Assembly: GCA_043754215.1 (NCBI GenBank)
Contig: JAYUVF010000002.1
Span: 42,317-106,316 of the forward strand
Direction: 5' to 3'
Origin: Chthonomonas sp.
Lineage (GTDB): Bacteria; Armatimonadota; Fimbriimonadia; Fimbriimonadales; Fimbriimonadaceae
DNA: 64,000 nucleotides
Below are positions 3,124-40,114 of the stretch, piece after piece. Position numbers and translations under genes: made by a program. The notes beneath the pieces were generated by a model, which did no database searches, was not told where the DNA came from, and worked only from the letters and a program-made list of their open reading frames with translations. The stretch's first letter is position 1. Each line of letters starts with the position of its first letter.

Positions 3124-3175
3124 CTACGCCATACAGATTACTCTGCTAATGCCGCCTCAAAGGGCGGGAGAGCCG

Positions 3176-4045
3176 ATGTCGGCGGTAAACTTTCAATTAA
3201 TGTTGAAAATTCGACTCGGCCATTCTCCTGATTCCGACGACGCCTTCATGTTTTGGGGGCTAGCGAGCGGTTACGTCAAGACCGACTATGAGTTCGAGCA
3301 CATCCTGCGCGACATCCAAACGCTCAATGACTGGGCAATGGAAGGGAAGCTGGAATCCAGTGCGGTGAGCGTGCACGCGTTCGCCTACGTGGCCGATAAG
3401 TACGCCCTCCTGAGACATGGCGGAAGCTGGGGAGAGAACTACGGGCCCATGATCGTGGCGGCAACTCAGCTTTCGGACGAAGAGTTGAAAGACACTGTGA
3501 TCGCGGTCCCCGGCTTGCTGACCAGCGCCTTTCTGCAGTTGAATCTCTGGTGGACAGAGAAATTCGGCGATCGCTCTAGCCTCAAGTTTGAAGTCGTGCC
3601 GTTCGACGAGATTATCCCAGCGATCCAAGAAGGGCGCTACAAGGCAGGCCTGATCATCCACGAAGGCCAGCTCACGTACGAGCGCGACGGCATGAAGCTC
3701 ATTGCGAACATGGGCACCTGGTGGAACGCGCTTACCGGACTGTCATTGCCATTGGGCGTGAATGTGGTCCGAAAGGACTTGGGCGAGGACGCGGTGAAGG
3801 AAGTGAGCCGCTGCATGCGGGAGTCGATCCAAGGTGGACTCGACAATCGAGAAAAGGCTTTGGCCTACGCCCTCCAGTTCGCGCGAGGCATGGATATTGA
3901 AACCAGCGATGAGTTCGTGGGGATGTACGTGAACGAGCGAACCGTGGACATGAAGGATGAGGGAGTCGAGGCGATTCGGTTACTCCTCAAGAAGGGAGCC
4001 GAGATCGGCATGGTGCCGGACGTCGAGATTGTGGTGGTGGACTAG
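3176..4045 (+). CDS. MqnA/MqnD/SBP-family protein (futalosine-route menaquinone biosynthesis-like)
   Basis: IRLGHSPDSDDAFMFWGL resembles the HSPCPNDTF signature of MqnD-type proteins. The start is set at ATG 3176, preceded by GGGCGGGAG. The longer ORF from 3011 overlaps the divergent nuclease gene; ATG 3200 is also possible. Confidence 0.55.
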   Translation: MSAVNFQLMLKIRLGHSPDSDDAFMFWGLASGYVKTDYEFEHILRDIQTLNDWAMEGKLESSAVSVHAFAYVADKYALLRHGGSWGENYGPMIVAATQLSDEELKDTVIAVPGLLTSAFLQLNLWWTEKFGDRSSLKFEVVPFDEIIPAIQEGRYKAGLIIHEGQLTYERDGMKLIANMGTWWNALTGLSLPLGVNVVRKDLGEDAVKEVSRCMRESIQGGLDNREKALAYALQFARGMDIETSDEFVGMYVNERTVDMKDEGVEAIRLLLKKGAEIGMVPDVEIVVVD

Positions 4046-4194: not shown

Positions 4195-4848
4195 TCACGC
4201 CCTCTGGTTGACTGTCGGCGTAGCTGGGAGTCGGGTTGAGGCGAAACACAGCGCTGCCGCGGCGATCACTGCGGGCCAAAGGCTGAACGACAGTAGGCGG
4301 TCGTGCGCGAGCGCGCCGAGCGTCGCACCTGTTACTAGCCCCAGCCAGTGCAGAGCATAGGGCCCCCAGGTGTTTCGTGGGCCGCCGTTGAGCATTCCGG
4401 CGAGCTGTTGGCCGAGCTTTACTAGAGTGCCGGTCATATAGGTGAGTCCGATGCTGACGCCGCCATCTCGTTGGAAAACGGTGTTTTCCGCCCCCATGGC
4501 GACGACCATCAGCGCGGTGGCGGCGTGAGTTTGGTTAAGTCCGTAGCAAATCGCCGCCCCGAGCAAGCACGCGGTGACGAGGAGCAGCACCGCGGGCTTG
4601 CGTCGTTTGGCTCTCGAGGCGAGAGTACCGGCGATGACGCCGAGAACAAAGAGACAGAGAACCCCAAGAATCAACCCCGCGGTGGCGAAGGTCGCGGCGC
4701 TCAGAGTGACCCCGAGTCTCGTTGAGTTCCCGCTCATGAAGGAGACGAAGAGGCCGCCGGTGGCGAGAAAGCCGGTGGCATCAACATAACCCGCCAAGCA
4801 GGCCAAGGCGATGGCGAGGGCGATGTGGCGGCGGCCGTAGTCGATCAT
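4195..4848 (-). CDS. YoaK/DUF1275 family membrane protein
   Basis: ALACLAGYVDATGFLATGGLFVSFMSGNSTRLG signature with multiple hydrophobic helices. Confidence 0.7.
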   Translation of the reverse strand: MIDYGRRHIALAIALACLAGYVDATGFLATGGLFVSFMSGNSTRLGVTLSAATFATAGLILGVLCLFVLGVIAGTLASRAKRRKPAVLLLVTACLLGAAICYGLNQTHAATALMVVAMGAENTVFQRDGGVSIGLTYMTGTLVKLGQQLAGMLNGGPRNTWGPYALHWLGLVTGATLGALAHDRLLSFSLWPAVIAAAALCFASTRLPATPTVNQRA

Positions 4849-10480: not shown

Positions 10481-13400
10481 CTAACTACAGCCGCTGGTGC
10501 TGCCGCAGGTGTTGCACTTGAGGCAGACGCCGTTTCGGACTAGGGTGAAGGCTCCGCATTCGGTGCAGGGGTCGCCCTCGTAGCCTTTGATCTTGGCTTC
10601 GCGTTGGTGCTCTGACAGGGTTCTGGTTGCGGATTGGGCTTTAGGATTCTTTTCGGATTGAAGATTTGAGATTTCAGATTTCAGATTTTGCGTGGCTGGA
10701 GTTTCTGACCCTATTCCGAGCGGGCCGATGGCGGCAACACCCTCACCCCGGCCCTCTCCCTTGGAGGGAGAGGGAGAGTCGGAGGGGGACTCGAAGAGGC
10801 TGCGGTTGAAGCCGTTGGCCGTGCTTTCTGTCCTAGCGACGCCGGGCATTTTGCCTTCGATTTCGTCGCCTTCCTCTTCATCCTCGAAGTCGGGGATTTG
10901 GTTGGGGTTGCCGGTGGTGTCGGACCTTAGATCCTCCGGTTTGACTTGGACGAGGTCGTTTCGGCCCAGGTAGGAGAACGCGAGCTCGCGGAAGATGAAG
11001 TCGATGACCGACGTGGACATCTTGATGTTCTCGTGGCCGGTGACGGGGCCGTTGGGCTCGAAGCGGGTGAAGACGAAGGCTTCGACGAACTCTTCGAGCG
11101 GCACGCCGTATTGGAGGCCGAGGGAGATCGCGATGGCGAAGCAGTTCATGAGCGAGCGGTAGGCCGCGCCCTCACGGTGCATGTCAATGAAGACTTCGCC
11201 GAGCGTGCCGTCGTCGTATTCGCCGGTGCGGACGTACACCTTGTGGCCGCCGATGCGGGCCTTTTGGGTGTATCCCTTTCGCCGCGCGGGCATGGTGCGT
11301 CGCTTGGCGATGTAGCGGTAGACGAGCTTGGTGGCGACGCGCTCGATCTGCTCGTGTTGCGAGAGCGATGCGGCGACTTCACCCTCACCCCAGCCCTCTC
11401 CCGTCGAGGGAGAGGGAGTGTCGAGGGTGGCTTCCAGAATGGCGGCGGCGGCGTCGTCGGTGCTGGCGTTGAGGGGTTGGCTGAGCTTGGAGCCGTCTCG
11501 GTAGAGGGCGTTGGCTTTGATGCCGAGCTTCCAGCTTTCCATGTACGCCTTTTCGACGTCCTCGACGGTGGCGTTGCTGGGCAAGTTGATGGTCTTGCTG
11601 ATCGCACCGGAGAGGAACGGTTGGGCGGCGCCCATCATGTGGATGTGGCCCATGTAGTGGATGAACCGTTGGCCCTTCTTGCCGCACTTGTTGGCGCAAT
11701 CGAAGATGGGATAGTGCTCCAGTTTGAGGTGGGGCGCGCCTTCGATGGTCATGGTGCCGCAGACGAAGTCGTTGGCTTCGGCAATCTCTTCTTTGGAGAA
11801 GCCGAGCTCGATGAGCATGTTGAATGACCAGTCGTTGAGCTGGGCGTCGGTGAGGCCGAGGTAGTCGCGGCAGAAGTCTTCGCCGAGCGTCCACTTGTTG
11901 AACACGAACTGAATCTCAAATGCGCCTTGGAGGCCCTTTTCGATCTTCTCGAGCGCTTCGGGGGTGAAGCCTTTGGCGGCGAGGGTTTCGTGGTTGATGC
12001 TTGGGCAGTTCCGGAGGGTGCCGGTGCCGACGCAGTAGTTGATGATGTCCTCGACCTGCTCGGGGTTGTAGCCGAGCTTCTTGAGGGCGGGCGGGACCGA
12101 CTGATTGACGATCTTGAAGTAGCCGCCGCCAGCAAGTTTCTTGAACTTGACGAGGGCGAAATCGGGCTCGACACCGGTAGTGTCGCAGTCCATGATGAGG
12201 CCGATGGTGCCGGTGGGGGCGAGCACGGTGACCTGGGCATTGCGGAAACCGTGGGCTTCGCCGAGTTCGACGGCCTGGTCCCAAGCTTCGCGGGCGGCCT
12301 TAAGGAGGTCGGTGGGGCACTCGTCGGGGTCGATGCCCATCGGCTTGACGGCGAGCTGCTCGTAGTCGCTGACGGGGACGTTGTAGGCGGCGCGGCGGTG
12401 GTTGCGCATCACGCGGAGCATGTGTGCGCGGTTCTTGGCGAAGCCGGGGAAGGGGCCATGCTCGCGGGCCATGGCGGCGCTGGTGGCATAGCTGCCTCCG
12501 CCTAAGATCGCGGTGAGGGCACCGGCGATCGCGAAGCCTTGTGGGCTGTCGTAGGGGATCGCCATCTGCATGAGCAGCGCGCCGAGGTTGGCGTAGCCCA
12601 GGCCGAGGGTGCGGAAGTCGTAGCTAAGCTGGGCAATTTCCTTGCTGGGGAATTGCGCCATGAGGACGCTAATCTCAAGAACCATCGTCCACAGCTTAAT
12701 CGCGTGCTTGTAACCTTCGATGTCGAACTGACCAGTCTCTTGGTTGTAGAGCGTGATCAGGTTGATGCTGGCGAGGTTGCAGGCGGTGTCATCGAGGAAC
12801 ATGTACTCGCTGCAGGGGTTGCTTGCGTTGATGCGGCCGCTTTCCGGGCAGGTGTGCCAGTCGTTGATGGTGGTGTCGTATTGGGTGCCGGGGTCGGCGG
12901 ATTGCCAGGCGGCCTCGCAGATCTGCTCCCAAAGCTCTCGGGCGGGGAGGGTTTTGACGGCTTTGCCGTCGGTTCGGCTGGTGAGTTTCCACTCGGCGTC
13001 TTGCTCGACGGCTTCGAGGAAAGCGTTGCTAAGACGGACGGAGTTGTTGCTGTTTTGACCGGCGACGGTGACGTAGGCTTCGGATTCATAGCCGGTGTCG
13101 AAGGTGGGGAACTCGATGCCGGTGATGCCATTGCCGGCGAGCTGGATGGCGCGCTGGATGTAGTTCGGGCTGATCTCGTCGAGCTTGGCTTCGGCGATGC
13201 TTCGGCGGAGTTCGGGGTTGGTGCGGGGGTCCACGTTGGCGCGGTTTTCCTTCACCTGTTCTTCGGAGCGGGTGCCGGTCCAGCAAGCCTTGACGATGGC
13301 GTTGAGGTGGCGGTTATTGAGGATAGAGCCGGTGACCAGTGAGGCCACTTTCTGCTCCTCTTTAACCTTCCAGTTGACGAATTGCTCGATATCTGGATGA

Positions 13401-30559: not shown

Positions 30560-32596
30560 ATGAAACTGCCCGTTTCGATGCTTCGTGATCTTGTGACGAC
30601 TTCTCTAACTCCAGAGGAGTTGGGTGATCTGTTGACCATGGCGGGCTTCGAGCTCGAAGGCATTGAAGAGGTGGGTGGACAGCCGGTGCTGGACATCAAG
30701 GTCGTGGCCAACCGCGGCGACGGATTGAGCGCCCTTGGGCTGGCCCGCGAAGTGCTGGCGAAGAGTCCGGACGGGCAACCCACTGATCTGTACCGATCGC
30801 TCACGGGGCGGTTGGGTTCTGGCGGCGTTCAAGGCAATCGCATTACCATCGAGACCGACCACTGCACTCGGTACGCCTGCGCAATTTACGATCAGGTGGA
30901 GAATGGGACTTCCCCGGCTTGGCTTCAAGCCAGGTTGACCGAAGCAGGGCAGAGGCCGATCAGCTTGCTGGTGGACCTCACTAACTACGTCATGTTAGAG
31001 ACTGGGCAGCCGCTGCACGCGTTCGATCTTGACAAGCTCGCGAAAGAGAGGATCGTGGTTCGACTTGCCCAAGCCGGCGAGACTCTTACCACTCTAAATG
31101 GCGTCGACCACAAGCTTCAGCCAAATCAAATGATGATTTGCGATGCGAACTCCCCTGTGGCGGCAGCGGGAGTGATGGGCGGGGCGGCGACCGAGGTCAG
31201 CGGCACAACCACTCGAATGCTCCTGGAAAGCGCGCACTTCGTGAATACGAGCGTGCGGAAAACGCGGAAGCAACTCAACCTCAATACAGACGCGAGCTAC
31301 CGTTTCGAGCGCAGCGTAGACCCGAATGGAGTTGTCGCGGCGCTGGAACGATTCGCGGAGCTTTACACGCAGATCACTGGGAAGGCGGCTTCAGGGCCGA
31401 TCGAGGATCTTTATCAGGCACCGCCGGTGCAGACCGCGATCACGGTGCGGCCCGATCGCGTGCGCCGCATCTGGGGCATGGCGATTGATACCGAGGAGAT
31501 GCGCCGTTATCTTGGGCACCTTGGGTTTGAGGTCAGCGGTACTGACGATGCGCTTTTGGTAACGCCTCCGACTTGGCGACCCGATGTCACGCTAGAAGAG
31601 GACGTGATTGAGGAGATCGGGCGGGTTCACGGCTACGAGAAGATTCCCGAGTCGCTGCCGCAGGGCACGACGCCACGGGGCGGGACATTTGGGCTTTACA
31701 GCGTGATTGACACGGCGAAGAAGACGATGCTCCGTTGTGGGCTCGATCAGATGATCAGTCATTCATTGCGCGACGCCAGCATCTTGGATTTTAATCCGGA
31801 ACGACGCGTAAGCGTGCGCAATCCGCATTCGCCCGAAATGCAATTCCTGCGCAGCTCGCTCCTGCCGGGACTCGCCGAAGCGGCGCTCAAGAACGGTGGT
31901 CGGAACCTCCACCTGTTCGAGATCGGCAAGGTTTTCGTGAAGGGGGATTACGAGAACGACGAGTCGCCTGAGCTTGGCATTTTGATTTGCGGTGAGATGC
32001 AGGAGCCCCATTTTGGTCAGCGAAAGCCGCCGATGGCTGACTTCTGGACGCTGAAAGGCATCCTTGAAGAGTTGGGTAAGTTGGTGCGCGATGACATCTC
32101 GTTCGAGCTCCCACGGCTACCCGATCACCGATTCCACCCGACCCGTCAGGCGGGCGTGATGGTGGACGAAGGGCGACTTTGGGTTGGAACAGCGGGGCAG
32201 ATTCACCCCGACTACGCCGAGCAACTGGGGCTCCCGGAGGAGACTTACATGGCCGAAATTGACCTGCTCGTCTTCTTCCAAAACCCCGATGCCGAGGTCA
32301 AGGTGAAGCCGATTAGCCGCAATCCCGCGGTGAAGCGGGACATCGCTTTTGTAATCAGCAAGTCGGTGCCGTATGCCGAGATTCAGGCGGCGGTGGACCG
32401 GGCTTGCGGAGAGTTGCTCGAGAAGCAGACGCTGTTCGACATCTACGAAGGCGCGGGGATCGAGGCAGGGCAGCATTCGCTCGCGGTCAATCTTCAGCTC
32501 CGAAAGGTCGGGCACACGTTTACCGACGAAGAAGCGAACCAAGTTCGCGACGAGGTGGTCCAGGCCATCGAGAGTCTCGGCGGCGTGCTGCGTTAG
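30560..32596 (+). CDS. pheT: Phenylalanine-tRNA ligase beta subunit (short form)
   Basis: MKLPVSMLRDLV...ELGDLLTMAGFELEGIEEV N-terminus, B3/4, B5 and FDX-ACB-like C-terminus. At 678 aa it is about 115 aa shorter than the E. coli-type protein. Confidence 0.9.
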   Translation: MKLPVSMLRDLVTTSLTPEELGDLLTMAGFELEGIEEVGGQPVLDIKVVANRGDGLSALGLAREVLAKSPDGQPTDLYRSLTGRLGSGGVQGNRITIETDHCTRYACAIYDQVENGTSPAWLQARLTEAGQRPISLLVDLTNYVMLETGQPLHAFDLDKLAKERIVVRLAQAGETLTTLNGVDHKLQPNQMMICDANSPVAAAGVMGGAATEVSGTTTRMLLESAHFVNTSVRKTRKQLNLNTDASYRFERSVDPNGVVAALERFAELYTQITGKAASGPIEDLYQAPPVQTAITVRPDRVRRIWGMAIDTEEMRRYLGHLGFEVSGTDDALLVTPPTWRPDVTLEEDVIEEIGRVHGYEKIPESLPQGTTPRGGTFGLYSVIDTAKKTMLRCGLDQMISHSLRDASILDFNPERRVSVRNPHSPEMQFLRSSLLPGLAEAALKNGGRNLHLFEIGKVFVKGDYENDESPELGILICGEMQEPHFGQRKPPMADFWTLKGILEELGKLVRDDISFELPRLPDHRFHPTRQAGVMVDEGRLWVGTAGQIHPDYAEQLGLPEETYMAEIDLLVFFQNPDAEVKVKPISRNPAVKRDIAFVISKSVPYAEIQAAVDRACGELLEKQTLFDIYEGAGIEAGQHSLAVNLQLRKVGHTFTDEEANQVRDEVVQAIESLGGVLR

Positions 32597-32883
32597 TGGT
32601 TTTCGCCGAAGGTACTCGCGGGGTGCGGTGACTGAAGCATACGGTTGTATGAGCCCAAAGTCACCAGCGTCGGCAGCCATTTTCGTAGCGAAGCACCCTG
32701 ATCTTTCTTGCCGGTCATGTCGTACATGAGCGATAGCGCGAGTGCGCCGATCGCCGCCCAGAGGAACACGTCCGAGGGCAACGCCTCGGTTTGCTTGTCT
32801 ATGGAAGACGACATGTTCGTCTTGATTTCCTCGACCGGATTGGTGAAAGTGCTCTTGTTCATGGCTACCTTCACCAGACTCAT
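32593..32883 (-). CDS. Hypothetical small membrane protein
   Basis: 96-aa ORF with one clear hydrophobic helix (VFLWAAIGALALSLMY) filling the gap between pheT and the AKR gene. No recognised domain. Confidence 0.4.
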   Translation of the reverse strand: MSLVKVAMNKSTFTNPVEEIKTNMSSSIDKQTEALPSDVFLWAAIGALALSLMYDMTGKKDQGASLRKWLPTLVTLGSYNRMLQSPHPASTFGENH

Positions 32884-32943
32884 TCGACTCTCAAAATGCG
32901 GACGAAATAGCCCGCGCAGCCATCAGAAAACCGTATGAGCGCG

Positions 32944-33933
32944 TTACCATGCGTAATGCTCTGGCGCAGTTTTCACTGCCGGGAAGATCCCGTCGATCCG
33001 CTCCAAAAGCTCCGGGGTGAACTCCAGCTCCGTCGCGCGGACTGAGCCTTCGAGTTGCGCCATCGTTCGCGGACCGATGATCGGGGCTGTGACGAACGGG
33101 CGGGTGAGGGTCCATCCGAGGGCGACATTGGCCGGTTCCTCCCCGATGTCCGCACATAACGACTCCCAGGCCGTCAGTTGCGCGCCTTGCTTTTCGATGA
33201 TCGGCTTCGACTGGTCGCCGTTTCGCCGCTTGCCCTCTTGGTTCTTCATCACGCCGGCCAAAACTCCGCTCGCCAATGGCGACCAGGGGATCACCCCGAT
33301 TCCATACGCTAAACAAGCCGGGCCGACTTCCATCTCGATATCGCGTTGCAAAAGCGAGAACTTCGACTGCTCCGAAACAAGCCCGAGGAAGTGGCGTCGG
33401 TTAGCCGCTTCTTGGGCGCGCACGATGTGCCATGCCGCGAAGTTGCTGCTCCCGGTGTAGATGATTTTGCCCTGCTGGTGCAACAGTTCAAACGCCTCCC
33501 AAAGCTCTTCCCAGGGCGCGTCGCGGAAGACGTGGTGCATCTGATAGATGTCCAAATAGTCCGTTTGGAGCCTCTTCAGCGACCCTTCGCAGGCGCGGCG
33601 GATGTGCAGCGCGCTCAGGTTCGAGGTGTTCGGCCAGTCGAGTGTCGCTTCCTTGCCCATGCGACCGAAGAGTTTGGTCGCCAGCACCACGCGCTCGCGC
33701 CGCTGGCCGCCTTGGGCAAACCACTCGCCGATAATCGTCTCGGTGATCCCCTCGCCTTGCTTCCAGCCGTACACATCGGCGGTGTCGAAGAAGTTAATCC
33801 CCAACTCCAGCGCGCGGTCCATGATCGCGAAGGAATCTTCCTTCGTGGTGCTAGGGCCGAAGTTCATGGTGCCGAGGCAAAGCTGGCTCACCTTGAGCCC
33901 GGTGCGACCGAGGGATACGTAGGGGACGGACAT
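32944..33933 (-). CDS. Aldo/keto reductase
   Basis: LGRTGLKVSQLCLGTMNFG N-terminus, GINFFDTADVYG, 329 aa. Confidence 0.85.
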   Translation of the reverse strand: MSVPYVSLGRTGLKVSQLCLGTMNFGPSTTKEDSFAIMDRALELGINFFDTADVYGWKQGEGITETIIGEWFAQGGQRRERVVLATKLFGRMGKEATLDWPNTSNLSALHIRRACEGSLKRLQTDYLDIYQMHHVFRDAPWEELWEAFELLHQQGKIIYTGSSNFAAWHIVRAQEAANRRHFLGLVSEQSKFSLLQRDIEMEVGPACLAYGIGVIPWSPLASGVLAGVMKNQEGKRRNGDQSKPIIEKQGAQLTAWESLCADIGEEPANVALGWTLTRPFVTAPIIGPRTMAQLEGSVRATELEFTPELLERIDGIFPAVKTAPEHYAW

Positions 33934-34005
33934 ACCCGCCTTCTACGCCTCGAAACTAGGTTTTGTCGGTGCGATTTGGCGCGAACGGATGTTCATTCCT
34001 TTACA

Positions 34006-34533
34006 ATGAAGTCAATGAGATCAGCGTTCGGTGTGGTGGGATTGATGCTTTTTGTCGCAGGAGCATCGGGGGCAACTCTTCAAGAGGTGTTGCAGGGGCG
34101 GCTGAACAACTTTGGACGTGCGGTGGGCGCGTACGACAAGAAGATGGTCGCCCGTTTAGGGGAAAGCGATTTTGACCCCGAGTTCCGCGCCTACGGGTAC
34201 GGCCCCTACGGCCCCGGCAAGGGGACGACTTTCCAAACTTGGTCCCGCGGCATTCGCTTTTATCCCTCGCCAGTTGTATCTATTAGGAGTTTAAAGATCA
34301 AGCTCGATTCGGTGAAACCAAATGGCACCACGGCTTGGGGCGCGGCTTCGTGCGTAACTACATTTTCCTATTTCAGCCGGAAGCCCAGCACACCCGATGG
34401 AAAAATTGAGATTGTCGCGAAGTGGAGCTTGATGTACGTGCTGAGGAAAGGCCGATGGGTTATCAAAGAGGTTCACATAAGAGAGGCGTCCGAGTACTGG
34501 GACGGCAAACTGAAGTCCAAGAGTGGGATTTAG
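34006..34533 (+). CDS. Hypothetical secreted protein (possibly NTF2-like fold)
   Basis: Start set at ATG 34006 (MKSMRSAFGVVGLMLFVAGASGA signal). The upstream part of ORF 33346-34533 is antisense to the AKR gene. The tail KWSLMYVLRKGRWVIKEVH hints at an NTF2/SnoaL-like fold. Confidence 0.55.
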   Translation: MKSMRSAFGVVGLMLFVAGASGATLQEVLQGRLNNFGRAVGAYDKKMVARLGESDFDPEFRAYGYGPYGPGKGTTFQTWSRGIRFYPSPVVSIRSLKIKLDSVKPNGTTAWGAASCVTTFSYFSRKPSTPDGKIEIVAKWSLMYVLRKGRWVIKEVHIREASEYWDGKLKSKSGI

Positions 34534-34572
34534 GGAGAGGATTCCGAAGCCCGCGCGTGTTCGAAAGCGTGC

Positions 34573-34640
34573 TTTTCTCCCCCCAACCCCCCTCGTGCAC
34601 TTCGCGCGACTTGCGTCGGGCTCCGTGAACGAGGGGGGCT
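34573..34640 (+). repeat. GC-hairpin intergenic element (type 1), copy D
   Basis: TTTTCTCCCCCCAACCCCCCTCGTGCAC...GTGAACGAGGGGGGCT has the same termini as copies A-C with a different interior. Confidence 0.85.
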
Positions 34641-34649
34641 ATGAGAGCA

Positions 34650-35660
34650 CTACGGCCGAGTCACGCTCACCGACCGCGAGCCCTTCTCGTTCCCCGTCTT
34701 CAGCATCACGTACACCTTGTAGAACACCTTCGACCCGCTCGCCACGAGGCCTTCGTCGGTCTCGAAACGGCGTGGGTCGGCGTCGTCGGGGAGGGACTCC
34801 AACACCTGCTCTTCGTCGGCGCGGTAGCGCGAGCCGAAGCAGGCGCGGAGTTCGTATTGGTCGAGGTTCGGGTCGGAGGACGCGGTGAAGGTGATGACGG
34901 CCTTCGAAACCGTGAGGTCCCACGAGGCGGAGACGTTGACCGCGTCGGGGGTTGCGCCAGCCGGAGGCGACAGGGATGGGAGAGACGAGTAAGTTGCCGT
35001 CTCCACCGCGAACCGCCCTTGGATGGCGAGGCGGTATTGCTTCAAGCGCTGATAGATCGGGTTCCACACTTGGTCGCGCAGGTTGCGGGCGGATTCGGCG
35101 GCGAGGGCCGCGGAGGTCACGGTGGTGAATGAAGTCATCGCGGCGGTCTGGTCGGTGACGAAGGTCGCGCGCGTGTAGCCGCCGTTCAGCAGCAGCGGGA
35201 TCGGCGCGCCTGCCGGAACGGGCGTGATCGCGTTGATTTGCTGCCAGATGTCGGCGACATCTTGCAGAGCCTTCTGCCAAACGCCGAGCGAACTGCTGAT
35301 CGAGGGAATGCGAGGGAGTTGGCTGACATAAACCGAGTCGGGCCAAAAGCCGCGCACCACATTATTGAACTGTCGAATTCGCTCTTTGATCGCCGCGCGC
35401 AAGATGTCGCGATTCGCGCTCGCCGCTTGGTTCGCGTTCTCAGCGGTGACGACTGCGTTCAGGTTGGTGAGCAACACCGCGCGGTCGGCGGTCAGGTTGG
35501 CGACTGGGTAGTTGCCACTCAGGATGATGGCCGATCCAAAAGCGGTATTCGCGAGGGGCCAGTGGGCGAGAAATTCGTCGGCTTTGGCGAGATAGTTGCG
35601 GGGCGCGATGCTTGTCTTTTTCATTGATCCGTAGGTCTCCAAGATGTCTGGGACGGCCAT
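34650..35660 (-). CDS. Hypothetical protein with FN3-like C-terminal domain
   Basis: Long ORF with a helical N-part and a beta-rich tail (VNVSASWDLTVSKAVITFTASSDPNLDQYELRA...KVFYKVYVMLKTGNEKGSRSVSV). The start is uncertain (35720, 35660 or 35624). Confidence 0.6.
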   Translation of the reverse strand: MAVPDILETYGSMKKTSIAPRNYLAKADEFLAHWPLANTAFGSAIILSGNYPVANLTADRAVLLTNLNAVVTAENANQAASANRDILRAAIKERIRQFNNVVRGFWPDSVYVSQLPRIPSISSSLGVWQKALQDVADIWQQINAITPVPAGAPIPLLLNGGYTRATFVTDQTAAMTSFTTVTSAALAAESARNLRDQVWNPIYQRLKQYRLAIQGRFAVETATYSSLPSLSPPAGATPDAVNVSASWDLTVSKAVITFTASSDPNLDQYELRACFGSRYRADEEQVLESLPDDADPRRFETDEGLVASGSKVFYKVYVMLKTGNEKGSRSVSVTRP

Positions 35661-35714
35661 GAAAGAGAGACGTAAGAATGGTGTAATAAAGTGCCAAACC
35701 GTCCGGAAGTTCCG

Positions 35715-35924
35715 CAACATTGACTAATCTAGGTACTACAGCTACTAATCTTGTCGCTACAGCTACTGAGCTTTCCTCTACGCCTACTGATTTTGTTGCT
35801 ACGGTTACTAAGCTTGGCTCTACAGCTACTGGTCGCGTCGCTACGTCTACTAGGCTTGCCCCTACGGCTACTAATCTTGTTGCTACGACTACTAAGCTTG
35901 CAGCTAATGCGTCTAATCTTGCCA
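35715..35924. repeat. Tandem array of 21-bp direct repeats (9 clear units plus 1 degenerate)
   Basis: Units start at 35736, 35757, 35778, 35799, 35820, 35841, 35862, 35883 and 35904. Consensus is CTACnGCTACTnAnCTTGnnn, and GC is visibly lower than in the flanks. Confidence 0.9.
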
Positions 35925-35940
35925 CTCAGCGGCGTGAGCC

Positions 35941-35997
35941 AAAAGCCAAGAGGAACGAGGCCATAGTCCACTAACCGAAGCCGCCGCTCCTCTTGGC
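35941..35997 (-). terminator. Probable terminator of the methyltransferase gene
   Basis: On the minus strand, GCCAAGAGGA-(33 nt)-TCCTCTTGGC is followed by TTTT, 10 nt after the TAA at 36007-36009. Confidence 0.5.
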
Positions 35998-36006
35998 TTA
36001 CTCAGT

Positions 36007-37782
36007 TTATGCGTCGAAAAGCTCGTCTTGCTTGATCGTAACCTTTGCTTTCGCCGCCTTCTTGAAACTATCGAGGCTCCAGCGGGGGATGTCGGGGACT
36101 TTACCGGCGAGGACTTCGGCGGCGGTGAGGATCTGGATGCAGGGGTAGCTGCGGTCGGGGTGGAGTTTGGAGTTCCATCGGCCCGCGTCGGCGGCTTCCT
36201 TTTTCATTGGGCCGGTGGGCTCTTCGTTCGTGACCAAGACGCCGATCACCGCGTTCTCTCGTGTCATTGTGCCTTGCAGGTCGCGGATCATTGGCGAGTT
36301 CAGCTTGCCGCCCTTCACGCTGATGACGGCGCGCTCGTAGTCGCCCGCCTTGTCGCCAAAGGTGATGATGCCGTCAATGCCGCGGTCGGCTCCTTTCTTG
36401 AACTCCTTGCCCTGCGCGCCCATCATGCCGATGGCCCACCACTCGAATTGGTAGGGGTCGTTCTGGAATAGGAACCGCGCGTCGTCGGCGGTCTCGGGGA
36501 CGCCGAGGACTTCGAACGGTTTGAGGCCCGGTTGCAGGCCGATCATCAATTCGTCTTCGCCCTTCGCCCAATAGGTCTTCATCGCGTGCCGTCGCTTCTG
36601 CACGGGAATGTCAGCGAGTCGGGCGATAGAGGCGTCTGGCGTGTGGATGTCGATAAGCCGCCGCTCCATCAGGTCCACCGCGACGTAGGTGACGTCAATA
36701 CCGATCCATCGGCGGTTGAGTTTGTCGGCGACTGCGATGGTGGTGCCGCATCCGCAGAAGGGGTCGAGAACAAGGTCGCCTTCGTTGCTGCTGGCTTGCA
36801 GGATGCGTTCGATTAGTGCTTCGGGCTTTTGAGTTGGATATCCCAAGCGCTCTTGGGCCTGAGAGTTGATGGGGGGAATGTCATCCCATAAGTTTTGAAT
36901 CCGCTCACCCTTCGATTCGTCCAGGAAGCGTATCAAGCGAAGCCGCCCGTCTGGCGAAGTCGGATAGTAGAGTAGGTCGCGGTTGTCGTATTCCTGCATC
37001 TTCTCTTTGCTTACTGCCCACCCGTTTGGGTGCGGCTGGTAGGTTATGCCGTTTTTAGCGGTGAAGGGGTAGTGCAGATTTGGACGTACACCAGGATTTC
37101 GGAGGTCGGAGGTGGTGTAAAACCGTCCCTGAGAATCCACCATATTGAACTTTGTCCGAATGTGCTTCTCGTTATAAGGAACGTAAACTTGATTCCACAC
37201 GAATTGCTTTGACTTCGTATAGTAAAAGATGTTATCTGTCGCATCGCCGTAGCCCCGAGATACGTTGCCGTGAGAGCTGGTGCGTTGCCAAATGATTTCA
37301 GTTTGAAAGTTTGCGAATCCAAACACTGCATCGAGAATTAGCTTGATGTAATGACTCGCAGTTGGGTCGCAGTGCAGATAGAGCGAACCTGTCGGCTTCA
37401 GAACGCGGTGAAGCTCCACCAGTCGCAGGGCCATCATTGTGATGTAGGCCATCATGCTGTTCCCCTTCTTGCCCGTGTCGCCGGTGAGGAACACCTTGAG
37501 AGACGCCATGAGATTCTTGAGATTAGTGGGAATCTCGATGCGGGTCATCAGCTCGTGGTACGCCTCTGCGGCGGCTTCGTCCCACTCCCAAGTGTCCTTG
37601 AACGCGTGAGCTTGTGCGGCGTTGTCCTCGCCACTTTGGTTTTTGTAGAGGACGTTGTAGTCGGCCTTGGAATTGAACGGCGGATCGAGATAGATCAGGT
37701 CCACCGACTCGTCCTCGATCTCCTCGCGCAATACGCGGAGGTTGTCACCGAAGAAGAGCTTGTTACGCCAGTCCTGAGCCAT
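36007..37782 (-). CDS. Beta-class N6-adenine/N4-cytosine DNA methyltransferase fused to a C-terminal Mrr-like (PD-(D/E)XK) domain
   Basis: Motif IV DLIYLDPPFNS lies N-terminal and motif I LVLDPFCGCGTT later, which is the beta-class order. The C-terminal GADRGIDGIITFGD...AVISVKGGK resembles the Mrr_cat fold. Confidence 0.85.
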   Translation of the reverse strand: MAQDWRNKLFFGDNLRVLREEIEDESVDLIYLDPPFNSKADYNVLYKNQSGEDNAAQAHAFKDTWEWDEAAAEAYHELMTRIEIPTNLKNLMASLKVFLTGDTGKKGNSMMAYITMMALRLVELHRVLKPTGSLYLHCDPTASHYIKLILDAVFGFANFQTEIIWQRTSSHGNVSRGYGDATDNIFYYTKSKQFVWNQVYVPYNEKHIRTKFNMVDSQGRFYTTSDLRNPGVRPNLHYPFTAKNGITYQPHPNGWAVSKEKMQEYDNRDLLYYPTSPDGRLRLIRFLDESKGERIQNLWDDIPPINSQAQERLGYPTQKPEALIERILQASSNEGDLVLDPFCGCGTTIAVADKLNRRWIGIDVTYVAVDLMERRLIDIHTPDASIARLADIPVQKRRHAMKTYWAKGEDELMIGLQPGLKPFEVLGVPETADDARFLFQNDPYQFEWWAIGMMGAQGKEFKKGADRGIDGIITFGDKAGDYERAVISVKGGKLNSPMIRDLQGTMTRENAVIGVLVTNEEPTGPMKKEAADAGRWNSKLHPDRSYPCIQILTAAEVLAGKVPDIPRWSLDSFKKAAKAKVTIKQDELFDA

Positions 37783-37948
37783 GCGACATTTTAGTTGAGC
37801 GTGTGATGCTTTTGCACGTGCGACATCCGGGGTCGGGAATGGTGGCAGGGGTGAATAACTTCGTCTCCCGAAAGGTGCGGCATACGCAACGTGTTCTGAA
37901 ATCGAACTACCGCCGAGCGGCCTGCCTCCGAGGCGTCACAATAGGGGT

Positions 37949-40114
37949 ATGCCTAACCGACTCGCCGCAAGCTCTTCGCCCTACCTGAAGCAGCATCAAG
38001 ACAACCCGATTGACTGGTTTGAGTGGAGCGACGAGGCGTTTGAGAAGGCGAAGGCGGAGGATAAGCCGATCTTTTTGAGCATCGGCTACAGCTCTTGCCA
38101 CTGGTGCCACGTGATGGCGCATGAGAGCTTCGAGGATCCGATCGTCGCCGACTTTCTGAACAAGTATTTTGTGAGCATCAAGGTGGACCGCGAGGAGCGG
38201 CCCGATGTGGACGAGGTTTACATGACGGCGGTGCAGATGATCAGCGGGCGCGGCGGGTGGCCGATCACCGTTTTCATGACGCCGGACAAGAAGCCGTTCT
38301 TCGCGGGGACGTATTTTCCCAAGCAGGATCGGGGCAAGACGCCGGGCTTCGTTTCGCTGGCGGCGAATATCGTGCAGTTGTGGGTGAAGTCGCGGCCGGA
38401 CGTGATGAAGAGCGCGAACCAGATCGCGGCGGCGCTGGAGAAGACGCTCGGGCGGGCGATGGGTTCGCTGACGAGCACGATTCAGCCTGAGCTCTTCTTG
38501 GAGTGTTTTAATGCGCTGAAGGCGGACTTTGATGGTGAGAATGGCGGCTTCGGGCCGGCTCCGAAGTTCCCGGGGCACACGTCGTTGGCGTTCCTGCTGG
38601 ACTTCGCGATGATCCAACCGGAGGCCGCCCCCGAGGCGCTTTCGATGATCATGCAGTCGCTGGAGCGGATGGCTTTGGGCGGGATTTACGACCAAATCGG
38701 CGGCGGTTTCCACCGCTACAGCACCGACGCGGAGTGGCTGCTGCCGCACTTCGAGAAGATGCTGTGCGACAACGCGCTGCTGCTGGGGATGTACGCGCGG
38801 GTGGGGCGGATCGCGAACGAACTTGGCGCGCCGAGCGCGGAACTTTACGACCAAATCACGATCGGCGTGATCGAGTGGCTGAAGCGCGAAATGATGACGA
38901 GCGACGGCTTCTTCTGCTCGGCGCAGGACGCGGACAGCGAAGGGGAGGAGGGGCTGCACTATCTCTGGTTTGCCGACGAAATTCGGCTGGTTTTGGGCGA
39001 ACGGGCGGACGCATTTATGGCGGCCTACGGGTTCGAGGAGGAAGGCAATTACCTCGACGAGGCCACGCAGCAGAAGACCGGCCGCAACATCCCGCACTTG
39101 AAGGAGAACCGGCGCGGCGAATTCCGGCAGGAGATTCAGATGCTGTTGGAGGCGCGCTCGCTGCGCGAGAAGCCGATGCTGGACTACAAGGCGCTGGCCG
39201 CTTGGAACGCGATGACGATTCGAAGCCTGGTCGAAGCCGAGGAGATTTTGCTGGCAGAGCGGTGCCTGCGCGGCTGGATGAAGGCGACGGCGGAGTTTGG
39301 GCGGTTGCCGCATCAGGTGACACTTGGCAAGCCGAGCGGCGACGCGTTCCTTGATGATTACGCCCACATGGCGCTGGCGGCGGCGGATGTTCATGCTGCG
39401 AACGGGAATCCGGAGTATCTGGCGTTCGGCGAAAGCCTGGTGGCGCAGATGATCGCGGGCTTTTATGACGAGGAGAAGTCTGGTTTCTTCTTCACGCATC
39501 GGGAGTCGGAGACGCTGTTTGGTCGCTCGAAGCCGGCGCTCGACCAAAACATGCCGAGCCCGAACAGTGTGGCGATCGAGGCTTGTTTGGCGTTTGGGCA
39601 AATGGAGATCGCCGAGAAGTCGCTGATGGCGGTGATCGGTTGGGCGCAGAAGATGCCGAATGCGGCGGAATCCATGATCCGCACGGCAATGTTCTACATG
39701 CTGACCAAACTCGCCGAAGAGCGCGGTAGTTCGGAGGAGCCGATTTCGCTGATCGAAACTCCTAAGGCCGCGCCAATCGTGGGGAAGGTCACGGCGAAGC
39801 TCGCTTCGCGGGAGATTGTTGGGGGCAAGGGCGCGGTGCTAATTTCGGTGCCAGAGGGCTTGCACTTGAACACGAACACGCCGCCCGCGCGGTGGCTAGT
39901 GCCGACGGAACTGGTTTTCGAGGGGGCGCGGGCTACTGTGGTTTATCCCGCGGGCGAGAACGAGCAGTACGCAGGGGATTTTGAGATTCCGTTCGAAGTG
40001 TCGGTCAGCGAACCGACCGAGTTTGAGGTTCGAGTCAAGTTCCAGGCTTGCACCAACACCGAGTGTCTAGCCGCCGACGATATATTGCTCGATGGCGTGT
40101 TACTGCCTGGCTAG
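37949..40114 (+). CDS. Thioredoxin-domain protein of the YyaL/DUF255 (SSP411-like) family
   Basis: [48 protein letters not shown]-terminus followed by an alpha/alpha-barrel-like body, 721 aa. Confidence 0.85.

Follow-up and report, generated by a model that had tools for sequence, protein, structure and literature searches.

The 64,000-nt stretch of Chthonomonas sp. DNA analysed here (contig JAYUVF010000002.1, positions 42,317 to 106,316, hereafter the window) carries at its positions 35715-35924 an array of about ten contiguous, head-to-tail units of 21 base pairs (bp), located upstream of a minus-strand gene (34650-35627). This array is a family-wide signature associated with the gene family to which the downstream gene belongs: of the 19 other distinct loci examined, 18 have a region with a 21 or 42 bp periodicity upstream of the family gene (19 of 20 when the window is counted). 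We favour, with roughly even confidence, the interpretation of a non-coding array of helically phased protein-binding sites, similar to operator or iteron arrays, that belongs to the control region upstream of the family genes.

The window aside, the analysis covered 28 fetched loci with family members (designated below by L numbers), which amount to 19 distinct loci or alleles. The identity of their proteins to the window protein ranges from 94% down to about 39%, with one additional, more distant member. In 18 of the 19, the 100-450 bp upstream of the gene include a region with 21 or 42 bp as its strongest autocorrelation lag, and Tandem Repeats Finder called a period-21 array in most of them. 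Array lengths are 140-290 bp, and 16-260 bp separate the array from the start codon. Throughout about 255 kb of DNA (window and loci), period-21 arrays of at least 2.5 copies were detected at this position only, except for a short heptad-coding repeat inside the L008 gene. Genomic neighbourhoods are unrelated among loci and include pheT with an aldo-keto reductase gene, TPR proteins, a MiaB-like radical-SAM enzyme, a glycoside hydrolase, ribosomal proteins and others. It follows that the array moves together with the gene. Two paralogous modules, each made of a gene and its array, apparently occur in one genome, the metagenome-assembled genome (MAG) UBA6659 (L005 on DKKT01000043 and L008 on DKKT01000069; also ERZ761602 NODE_548 and NODE_920, from a single metagenome), at similar coverage (5.8 and 5.2). 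No account of such arrays was found in a full-text literature search.

In the window, Tandem Repeats Finder called period-21 arrays within 35736-35906, together with stronger rows at a period of 42 bp (35736-35901, 4.0 copies, 75% matches, score 192) and of 84 bp (2.0 copies, 81% matches, score 225). These 42 and 84 bp super-periods correspond to an alternation of A and B units. The array, to which no strand was assigned, has the plus-strand consensus CTACrGCTACTrAkCTTGyyn, and the unit consensus on the gene strand is CAAGATTAGTAGCCGTAGCGA. The core pattern CTACNNCTACTNANCTTG, with up to two mismatches, matched seven in-register units of the array and a single place elsewhere in the 64 kb, against 0.10 matches expected; none of 100 shuffled sequences reached eight matches. 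Both analyses confirm the array of about ten units at 35715-35924 that had been proposed in the sequence-only reading, and all the units listed there (nine clear ones and a degenerate one at 35715) read as they had been given. The recurrence of AGCT and AAGCTT sites was likewise borne out, with seven AGCT (about 9-fold enriched) and two AAGCTT in the array, and four of the six reading frames are indeed open across it. GANTC and GATC are both absent from the window array. Direct repeats of about 21 bp or longer are also found in CRISPR arrays; here, however, the units are contiguous and the period equals the unit length, so that there are no spacers, and no cas genes are located nearby. As stated in the sequence-only reading, the array is thus not a CRISPR array.

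The downstream gene had been described as an orphan. This is wrong, as it has 107 close homologues of about 322 residues, and a profile search retrieved representatives of 1091 clusters (50% identity), almost all of them proteins of about 320 residues with a single domain. Named homologues come from Fimbriimonadales, Chthonomonas or Armatimonadetes MAGs. The family is large and uncharacterised, and its occurrence is recorded here in Armatimonadota (Fimbriimonadales, Chthonomonas). Its extent had been given as 34650-35660, but a start at 35660 is less likely than one at 35627 (MKKTSIAPRNY), where the homologues begin. The encoded 325-residue protein consists of an N-terminal four-helix domain and a C-terminal Fn3 domain. 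In the AlphaFold2 model, four predicted helices, two of them of about 53 residues, are followed by the Fn3 domain. The model is a confident one, its predicted local distance difference test score being 90.5, and 95.1 when the N-domain is taken by itself. A Foldseek structure search matched the Fn3 part alone, the helical N-domain being without a match below E = 0.3, and the protein has no family in Pfam, NCBIfam, PADLOC or PHROGs and no sequence match in the PDB. Between gene and array, a non-repeat segment (35628-35714, minus strand) presumably contains the promoter and/or the 5′ untranslated region, with a GGAG located 12 nt before the ATG. Inspection by eye for sigma-54 elements revealed nothing consistent.

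The intragenic repeat of L008 (4146-4201, also present in L012 at 3146-3201) is a 21-bp repeat of 2.7 copies located in the first long helix of the family protein. It has no detectable DNA similarity to the upstream array. Since the L008 gene holds such an internal repeat, we considered that the arrays could serve as silent cassettes from which the helical region of the neighbouring gene is altered by gene conversion. This idea was rejected, as the DNA similarity between array and gene never exceeded that of shuffled sequences in 16 loci.

The period is fixed at 21 bp across lineages, whereas the sequence of the unit is lineage-specific. On the gene strand, the unit consensus is CGACCGCAAAGCCGAGATGTG in L003 and CCGCTGGAGCTCTTTACGCAA in L008, the cores are GCTCTGAATGTC in L025 and TAGGGCACCGTAA in L027, and the units of L009 and L024 read GTAG-N6-TTCGAG and TGTAG-N7-CTTGACG, respectively. 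L028 units contain GTTGA/TCAAC half-sites in both orientations. A motif common to all arrays was rejected, most lineage pairs remaining at the null level in a cyclic, two-orientation profile comparison. The pairs above 99% of the null were window-L002, L003-L011, L003-L007 and L013-L024, as well as the inverted halves of L007 and those of L024. In addition, a CTACAG core (background 0.22 per kb) is common to the window, L007 and L024, in either orientation. The arrays thus share a common descent, but their sequences drift rapidly.

Each unit comprises one or two contiguous cores of 4-14 bp and a free spacer, and paired cores are about one helical turn apart. In the window and L002, three unit positions are invariant in 17/17 units, a G at index 6 and an AG at 17-18, again about one helical turn from each other. 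In L015, L016 and L018, one A is invariant in 21/21 units and a CA located 10 bp away is kept in 17-19 of the 21, whereas the spacers differ. Conservation within arrays is concentrated at a period of 21 or 10.5 bp and is significant in L009, L024, L021, L023, L025, L027 and L001. A Fisher combination of the p-values of the 10.5-bp component, which is our own calculation and not a tool output, gave about 0.005. In L001, L007, L009, L024, L027 and L028, the distal units run in the opposite orientation to the proximal ones, as reverse complements. These inverted units have kept their cores and the spacing between cores, whereas the spacers are not complementary, which fits recognition of double-stranded DNA and not of an RNA hairpin or a single-stranded RNA site. 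A short core per unit, a free spacer and phasing by an integral number of turns are the generic features of operator-like or iteron-like arrays, and from them we infer the binding itself.

Comparison of close relatives revealed how the units change. Between the window and L002, the gene shows 40% divergence at four-fold degenerate sites; a terminator hairpin on the distal side of the array and the gene-proximal segment are about 90-95% identical, whereas the array in between is about 55% identical. For L015 and L018, divergence is 9% at four-fold sites and 3% in the proximal 70 bp, yet the arrays are only 48% identical. The reverse pattern was observed for L016 and L017, with 98.7% identical arrays and 16% divergence at four-fold sites. 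L003 has 11 units and L019 has six, between flanks that are 100% identical, but L019 lies on a low-coverage short-read contig and this difference may reflect assembly collapse. These comparisons indicate that units turn over by slippage and unequal exchange, with selection acting on a few core positions.

On the side distal to the gene, the array is bounded by a hairpin followed by TTTT on the minus strand (35941-35997). The hairpin has a folding energy of -42 kcal/mol (z = -5.7, with 0/200 shuffles as stable) and is followed by UUUU in the transcript, where the stop codon of a methyltransferase gene (36007-36009) lies upstream of it. It is therefore the intrinsic terminator of this gene, in agreement with the earlier proposal that the methyltransferase gene ends before the array. 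The hairpin is kept in L002, although a different methylase gene (MT-A70) abuts there. The methyltransferase gene (36007-37782, minus strand) encodes an N6_N4 DNA methyltransferase (PF01555, 3e-46) fused to an Mrr-type nuclease domain (PF04471/PF22722, 1e-8), so that the methyltransferase-nuclease fusion recognised in the sequence-only reading is correct, and it matches type II/III methyltransferase models in PADLOC. The G+C content falls to 0.46 at 37050-37350 inside this gene, against about 0.60 around it, which is consistent with horizontal acquisition.

Pieces of the same fusion were detected at other loci. The window Mrr domain is 60% identical to a stand-alone protein of 169 residues encoded directly upstream of the array in L009/L020, and 35% identical to a 120-residue remnant in L003-5. 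Fragments of the N-terminal part of the methyltransferase, 71-76% and 46% identical and in one case frameshifted, are located further upstream in these two lineages, respectively. The methyltransferase and Mrr pieces (1526-1872 and 2736-3245 in L020, 1929-2264 and 4126-4488 in L003) are split by inserted genes, namely a C5 methylase and a GIY-YIG nuclease in L003/L004 and a 250-residue unknown protein in L020. In L024, an EcoRI-type methylase and GmrSD/HNH genes are found upstream of the array. In total, at least four independent arrivals of restriction-modification genes took place at the spot upstream of the array. The block formed by the methyltransferase-Mrr gene, the array and the family gene is ancestral in one sub-clade, although the methyltransferase is not required for the array. 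The spot upstream of the array is a landing site used repeatedly by restriction-modification genes, which marks it as a defence-gene hotspot. A search for a small regulator gene conserved beside the module, by all-against-all BLAST of the neighbouring small open reading frames (ORFs), gave Mrr-domain relatives only.

Several other features were noted around these loci. In L001, a long imperfect inverted repeat (4628-4760, CCCCAAAGGGGTAGCATATCTTAGCGAAGG ... CCTTCGCTAAGATACGCCACCCCTTCGGGG) is located between a PEP-CTERM protein gene and the array; it may represent either a small mobile repeat element or a terminator of large size. The TPR-protein gene upstream of the array in L018 contains a 126-bp tandem repeat (1177-2498, 10.5 copies, 88% identity) that encodes 42-residue repeats. 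IS200/RAYT-like Y1 transposase genes, with weak Pfam matches, are present a few kb from the family gene in L021 (2907-3389) and L022 (7584-8111). The window contains another tandem repeat at 10651-10688, with 5.4 copies of the 7-bp unit TTTCAGA.

According to the interpretation that we favour, the 21-bp unit corresponds to two turns of B-DNA, with one or two short cores per unit and free spacer between them, so that over the 140-290 bp of an array all cores face the same side of the helix. A sequence-specific DNA-binding protein would bind the cores cooperatively and coat this face. The bound array would then control a promoter adjoining or overlapping the last units, in the manner of operator or iteron arrays. 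The arrays of L001 and L015 end 16 bp and 51 bp, respectively, before the start codon, and some arrays must therefore overlap the promoter or the leader. Slippage and unequal recombination add, remove, homogenise and sometimes invert units; as a result, spacers, and eventually cores, are replaced from one lineage to another without loss of the 21-bp register. The product of the gene itself is a candidate for the binder, since paralogues in one genome have private arrays. More speculatively, array and gene could form a self-contained two-part module of a hitherto undescribed kind, in which the helical and Fn3 protein would recognise its own array and nucleate or polymerise there, the array acting as a loading site in cis. 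Each paralogue would have its private array, and such modules, which would reside preferentially in restriction-modification or defence neighbourhoods, may serve in defence or in DNA organisation and be more than simply regulated genes. We consider this extended version unlikely.

A number of observations weigh against a set of protein-binding sites. The family member of L022 has no array. No binding-protein gene is consistently encoded near the arrays of the examined loci, and structure searches revealed no recognisable DNA-binding fold in the downstream protein, whose N-domain is acidic in some family members that nevertheless carry arrays. The proteins of L015 and L018 are 97% identical over residues 1-108, yet their arrays differ. 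The paired modules L005 and L008 have unrelated units (CGACCGCAAAGCCGAGATGTG and CCGCTGGAGCTCTTTACGCAA), and one trans-acting factor therefore cannot serve both. Simple consensus scans gave no recognisable promoter, with no sigma-70 consensus in 35628-35714. Finally, the conservation observed within arrays is confounded by recent homogenisation of the units.

Five rival explanations were weighed, given here in order of decreasing probability. The array could be structural DNA independent of its sequence, in which phased small bends produce a curved or flexible upstream element with no dedicated sequence-specific binder, acting as an element of promoter architecture, a target of nucleoid proteins, an insulator or a phase-variation spacer with a variable number of units. 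This would account for a period of exactly 21 bp in every lineage in spite of units that cannot be aligned between most of them, for the irrelevance of orientation, for the unrelated units of two modules apparently in one genome, and for unit numbers that differ between otherwise identical loci. However, variation within units is strongly non-uniform between cores and free spacers (p <= 0.005 in five arrays), and orthologous arrays that have diverged still share certain core nucleotides without change. This points to base-specific selection and not to periodicity alone. We consider a purely structural role unlikely. Somewhat less likely still is a transcribed repeat RNA, which would belong either to the 5′ leader of the gene downstream or to a divergent non-coding RNA ending at the distal hairpin, whose motifs would be recognised by a protein or an RNA. 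The short distance of the L001 and L015 arrays from the start codon (16-51 nt) implies that part of them may be leader, the transcript of the gene strand has unusually little structure (z = +1.8), as would suit a single-strand binding platform, one promoter-like site in L009 aims into the array on the opposite strand, and many loci have a hairpin or a junction of inverted units at the distal end. Nevertheless, Rfam gave no match except spurious ones of microRNA models to hairpins, neither strand is more structured than shuffled sequences (z = +1.8 for the gene strand and 0.0 for the other), strand composition is inconsistent across arrays, and inverted units carry the core as its reverse complement, which is a different RNA sequence. 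The third rival is a small heptad-repeat protein, coiled-coil or rich in Ser, Thr and Ala, encoded on the strand opposite the gene, 21 bp being seven codons. The sequence-only reading had proposed such a micro-protein of 84 residues. The corresponding frame (35720-35974, plus strand, TTG start) reads the array as heptads (TATNLVA...) and is open in the window, its L002 equivalent being the sole open frame of six over about 95 codons; second codon positions are the most conserved ones in this frame between the window and L002 (0.69 versus 0.43 and 0.52), and its leucine codons vary at the third base. L009 has a 73-residue, ATG-initiated ORF with a clean leucine a/d pattern resembling a leucine zipper, and the heptad of L008 reads LQRLRKE. 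Against this, a search of 5.8 billion proteins gave no homologue of the 84-residue peptide at E <= 10, the peptide belongs to no Pfam or NCBIfam family, its TTG start is a TCG in the aligned L002 contig, where the gene caller did not call the ORF, and the L002 heptads include Pro-Pro and Gly. The between-unit ratio of nonsynonymous to synonymous substitutions (dN/dS) is 1.01 for the window frame and 0.5-1.6 for all stop-free frames of 17 arrays, never falling below the 5% quantile of a column-permutation null, and a 3-bp component was not significant in the conservation profile of any array (all p > 0.08; our own Fisher combination gave about 0.8). Furthermore, no frame is open throughout L015-L018, L016/L017 having a stop where L018 is open and vice versa in the other candidate frame; none of the six frames of L027 is free of stops, a 41-bp spacing breaks the heptad frame in L007, and inverted units would give unrelated peptides. 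We therefore judged that the 84-residue frame is not a gene and dropped the micro-protein, which we regard as improbable. A public gene call of 80 residues in L003 (4579-4821, MRDRKAEMCGRKAEMC...) is the array read in one open frame, a spurious ORF; these arrays yield long spurious heptad ORFs, which calls for caution with gene callers.

The two remaining rivals involve the neighbourhood or the origin of the array. In the first, the array would be a methylation-sensitive operator tied to the adjacent methyltransferase, methylation of AGCT or AAGCTT modulating binding as in Dam-dependent switches. The enrichment of AGCT and the two AAGCTT sites in the window array, the methyltransferase-Mrr gene or its remnants as the ancestral upstream neighbour in three lineages and the recurrence of restriction-modification genes just upstream of arrays would be in line with this. 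At most family loci, however, the array has no adjacent methyltransferase, units are unrelated among the three lineages with a common ancestral methyltransferase, an enzyme that is fragmented in two of these lineages, palindromes are not general among units, and the window array has neither GANTC nor GATC. The option of a multi-operator, possibly methylation-sensitive control region, raised in the sequence-only reading, is thus upheld in its first half only: a multi-site control region of the downstream gene is the best supported option, given the arrays at 18 of 19 other loci irrespective of the upstream neighbour, whereas the link to methylation is unsupported, because arrays occur without an adjacent methyltransferase and lineages sharing the methyltransferase have unrelated units. 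We consider such a link very improbable. The last and least probable rival, for which we see hardly any room, comprises plasmid or phage iterons, a partition centromere left by a mobile element, or a neutral minisatellite. Unit length and head-to-tail layout are like those of iterons and of parC/sopC-type centromeres, and the methyltransferase gene shows the local dip in G+C mentioned above (0.46 against about 0.60). But no Rep, ParA, ParM or ParB gene is located near the array, no ORF for a partition nucleoside triphosphatase (NTPase), TubZ included, or for a centromere-binding protein was found within 32000-40000, and the loci of relatives have no partition genes either. The array lies amid chromosomal genes (pheT, aldo-keto reductase, DsbH-like) in synteny with L001. 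Searches of 72,556 plasmids, 50,697 phages and IMG/VR gave no homologue of the family gene, and the unit pattern gave single chance matches only in viral contigs. A neutral minisatellite, for its part, would not stay at one position down to about 39% protein identity. The array is therefore not a plasmid iteron or a partition centromere, and the iteron or centromere-like array of a mobile element suggested in the sequence-only reading is right only in so far as it invoked a protein-binding array; its mobile-element half was rejected, given the lack of Rep and Par genes and the absence of gene homologues from the plasmid, phage and viral-contig collections.

Returning to a set of protein-binding sites, several known systems offer points of comparison. 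Arrays of direct repeats of the 19-22 bp type resemble plasmid and phage iterons and parC/sopC centromeres. The operators of the omega repressor of inc18 plasmids (pSM19035) are made of 7-10 contiguous heptad sites that are cooperatively bound by ribbon-helix-helix dimers. They share with the present arrays a long unbroken series of short non-palindromic sites upstream of regulated genes, and sites that work in direct or inverted orientation; binding is cooperative there, as it would be here. In contrast, the unit is here 21 bp long, with no 7-bp sub-period in the autocorrelation, and the array is chromosomal and tied to one gene family, with no ribbon-helix-helix gene identified. The type II partition centromeres (parC of R1 and pSK41) are bound by ParR and located at the par promoter, which is thereby autoregulated. 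As in our arrays, helically phased direct repeats (10-11 or 20 bp) lie just upstream of the regulated operon, and coating of one face by a small DNA-binding protein would be a common property. Unlike these centromeres, the present arrays have no ParM/ParR or ParA/ParB, and the helical and Fn3 protein encoded downstream has no NTPase fold and is absent from plasmid collections. Plasmid iterons are Rep-binding direct repeats of 17-22 bp at replication origins. Unit length, tandem direct layout and cores with variable flanks are similar, but here there is no rep gene or plasmid context, inheritance is with a chromosomal gene family, and at least ten contiguous units without spacing would be atypical of iterons. 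Phase-variable (contingency) promoters contain units of 1-7 bp that change promoter spacing or reading frame. They too have a tandem repeat upstream, and the 11 versus 6 units of otherwise identical loci, possibly due to short-read collapse, recall them; here, however, any change would occur in steps of two full helical turns that preserve phasing. By analogy, the array would work most like the omega repressor heptad arrays or the ParR-parC arrays.

These observations define a family-wide signature, in which a large uncharacterised protein family carries its own upstream array whose 21-bp register is kept while its sequence changes. The successive arrivals of different restriction-modification genes upstream of the array mark this site as a defence-gene hotspot. 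The arrays also constitute a natural series for studying the co-evolution of multi-site DNA-protein assemblies under concerted evolution. Should the protein turn out to assemble on the array of its own gene, this would be something newer than the known operator-like and iteron-like kinds. In any case, the array is a practical handle on the regulator of the family, and thereby on the function of the protein.

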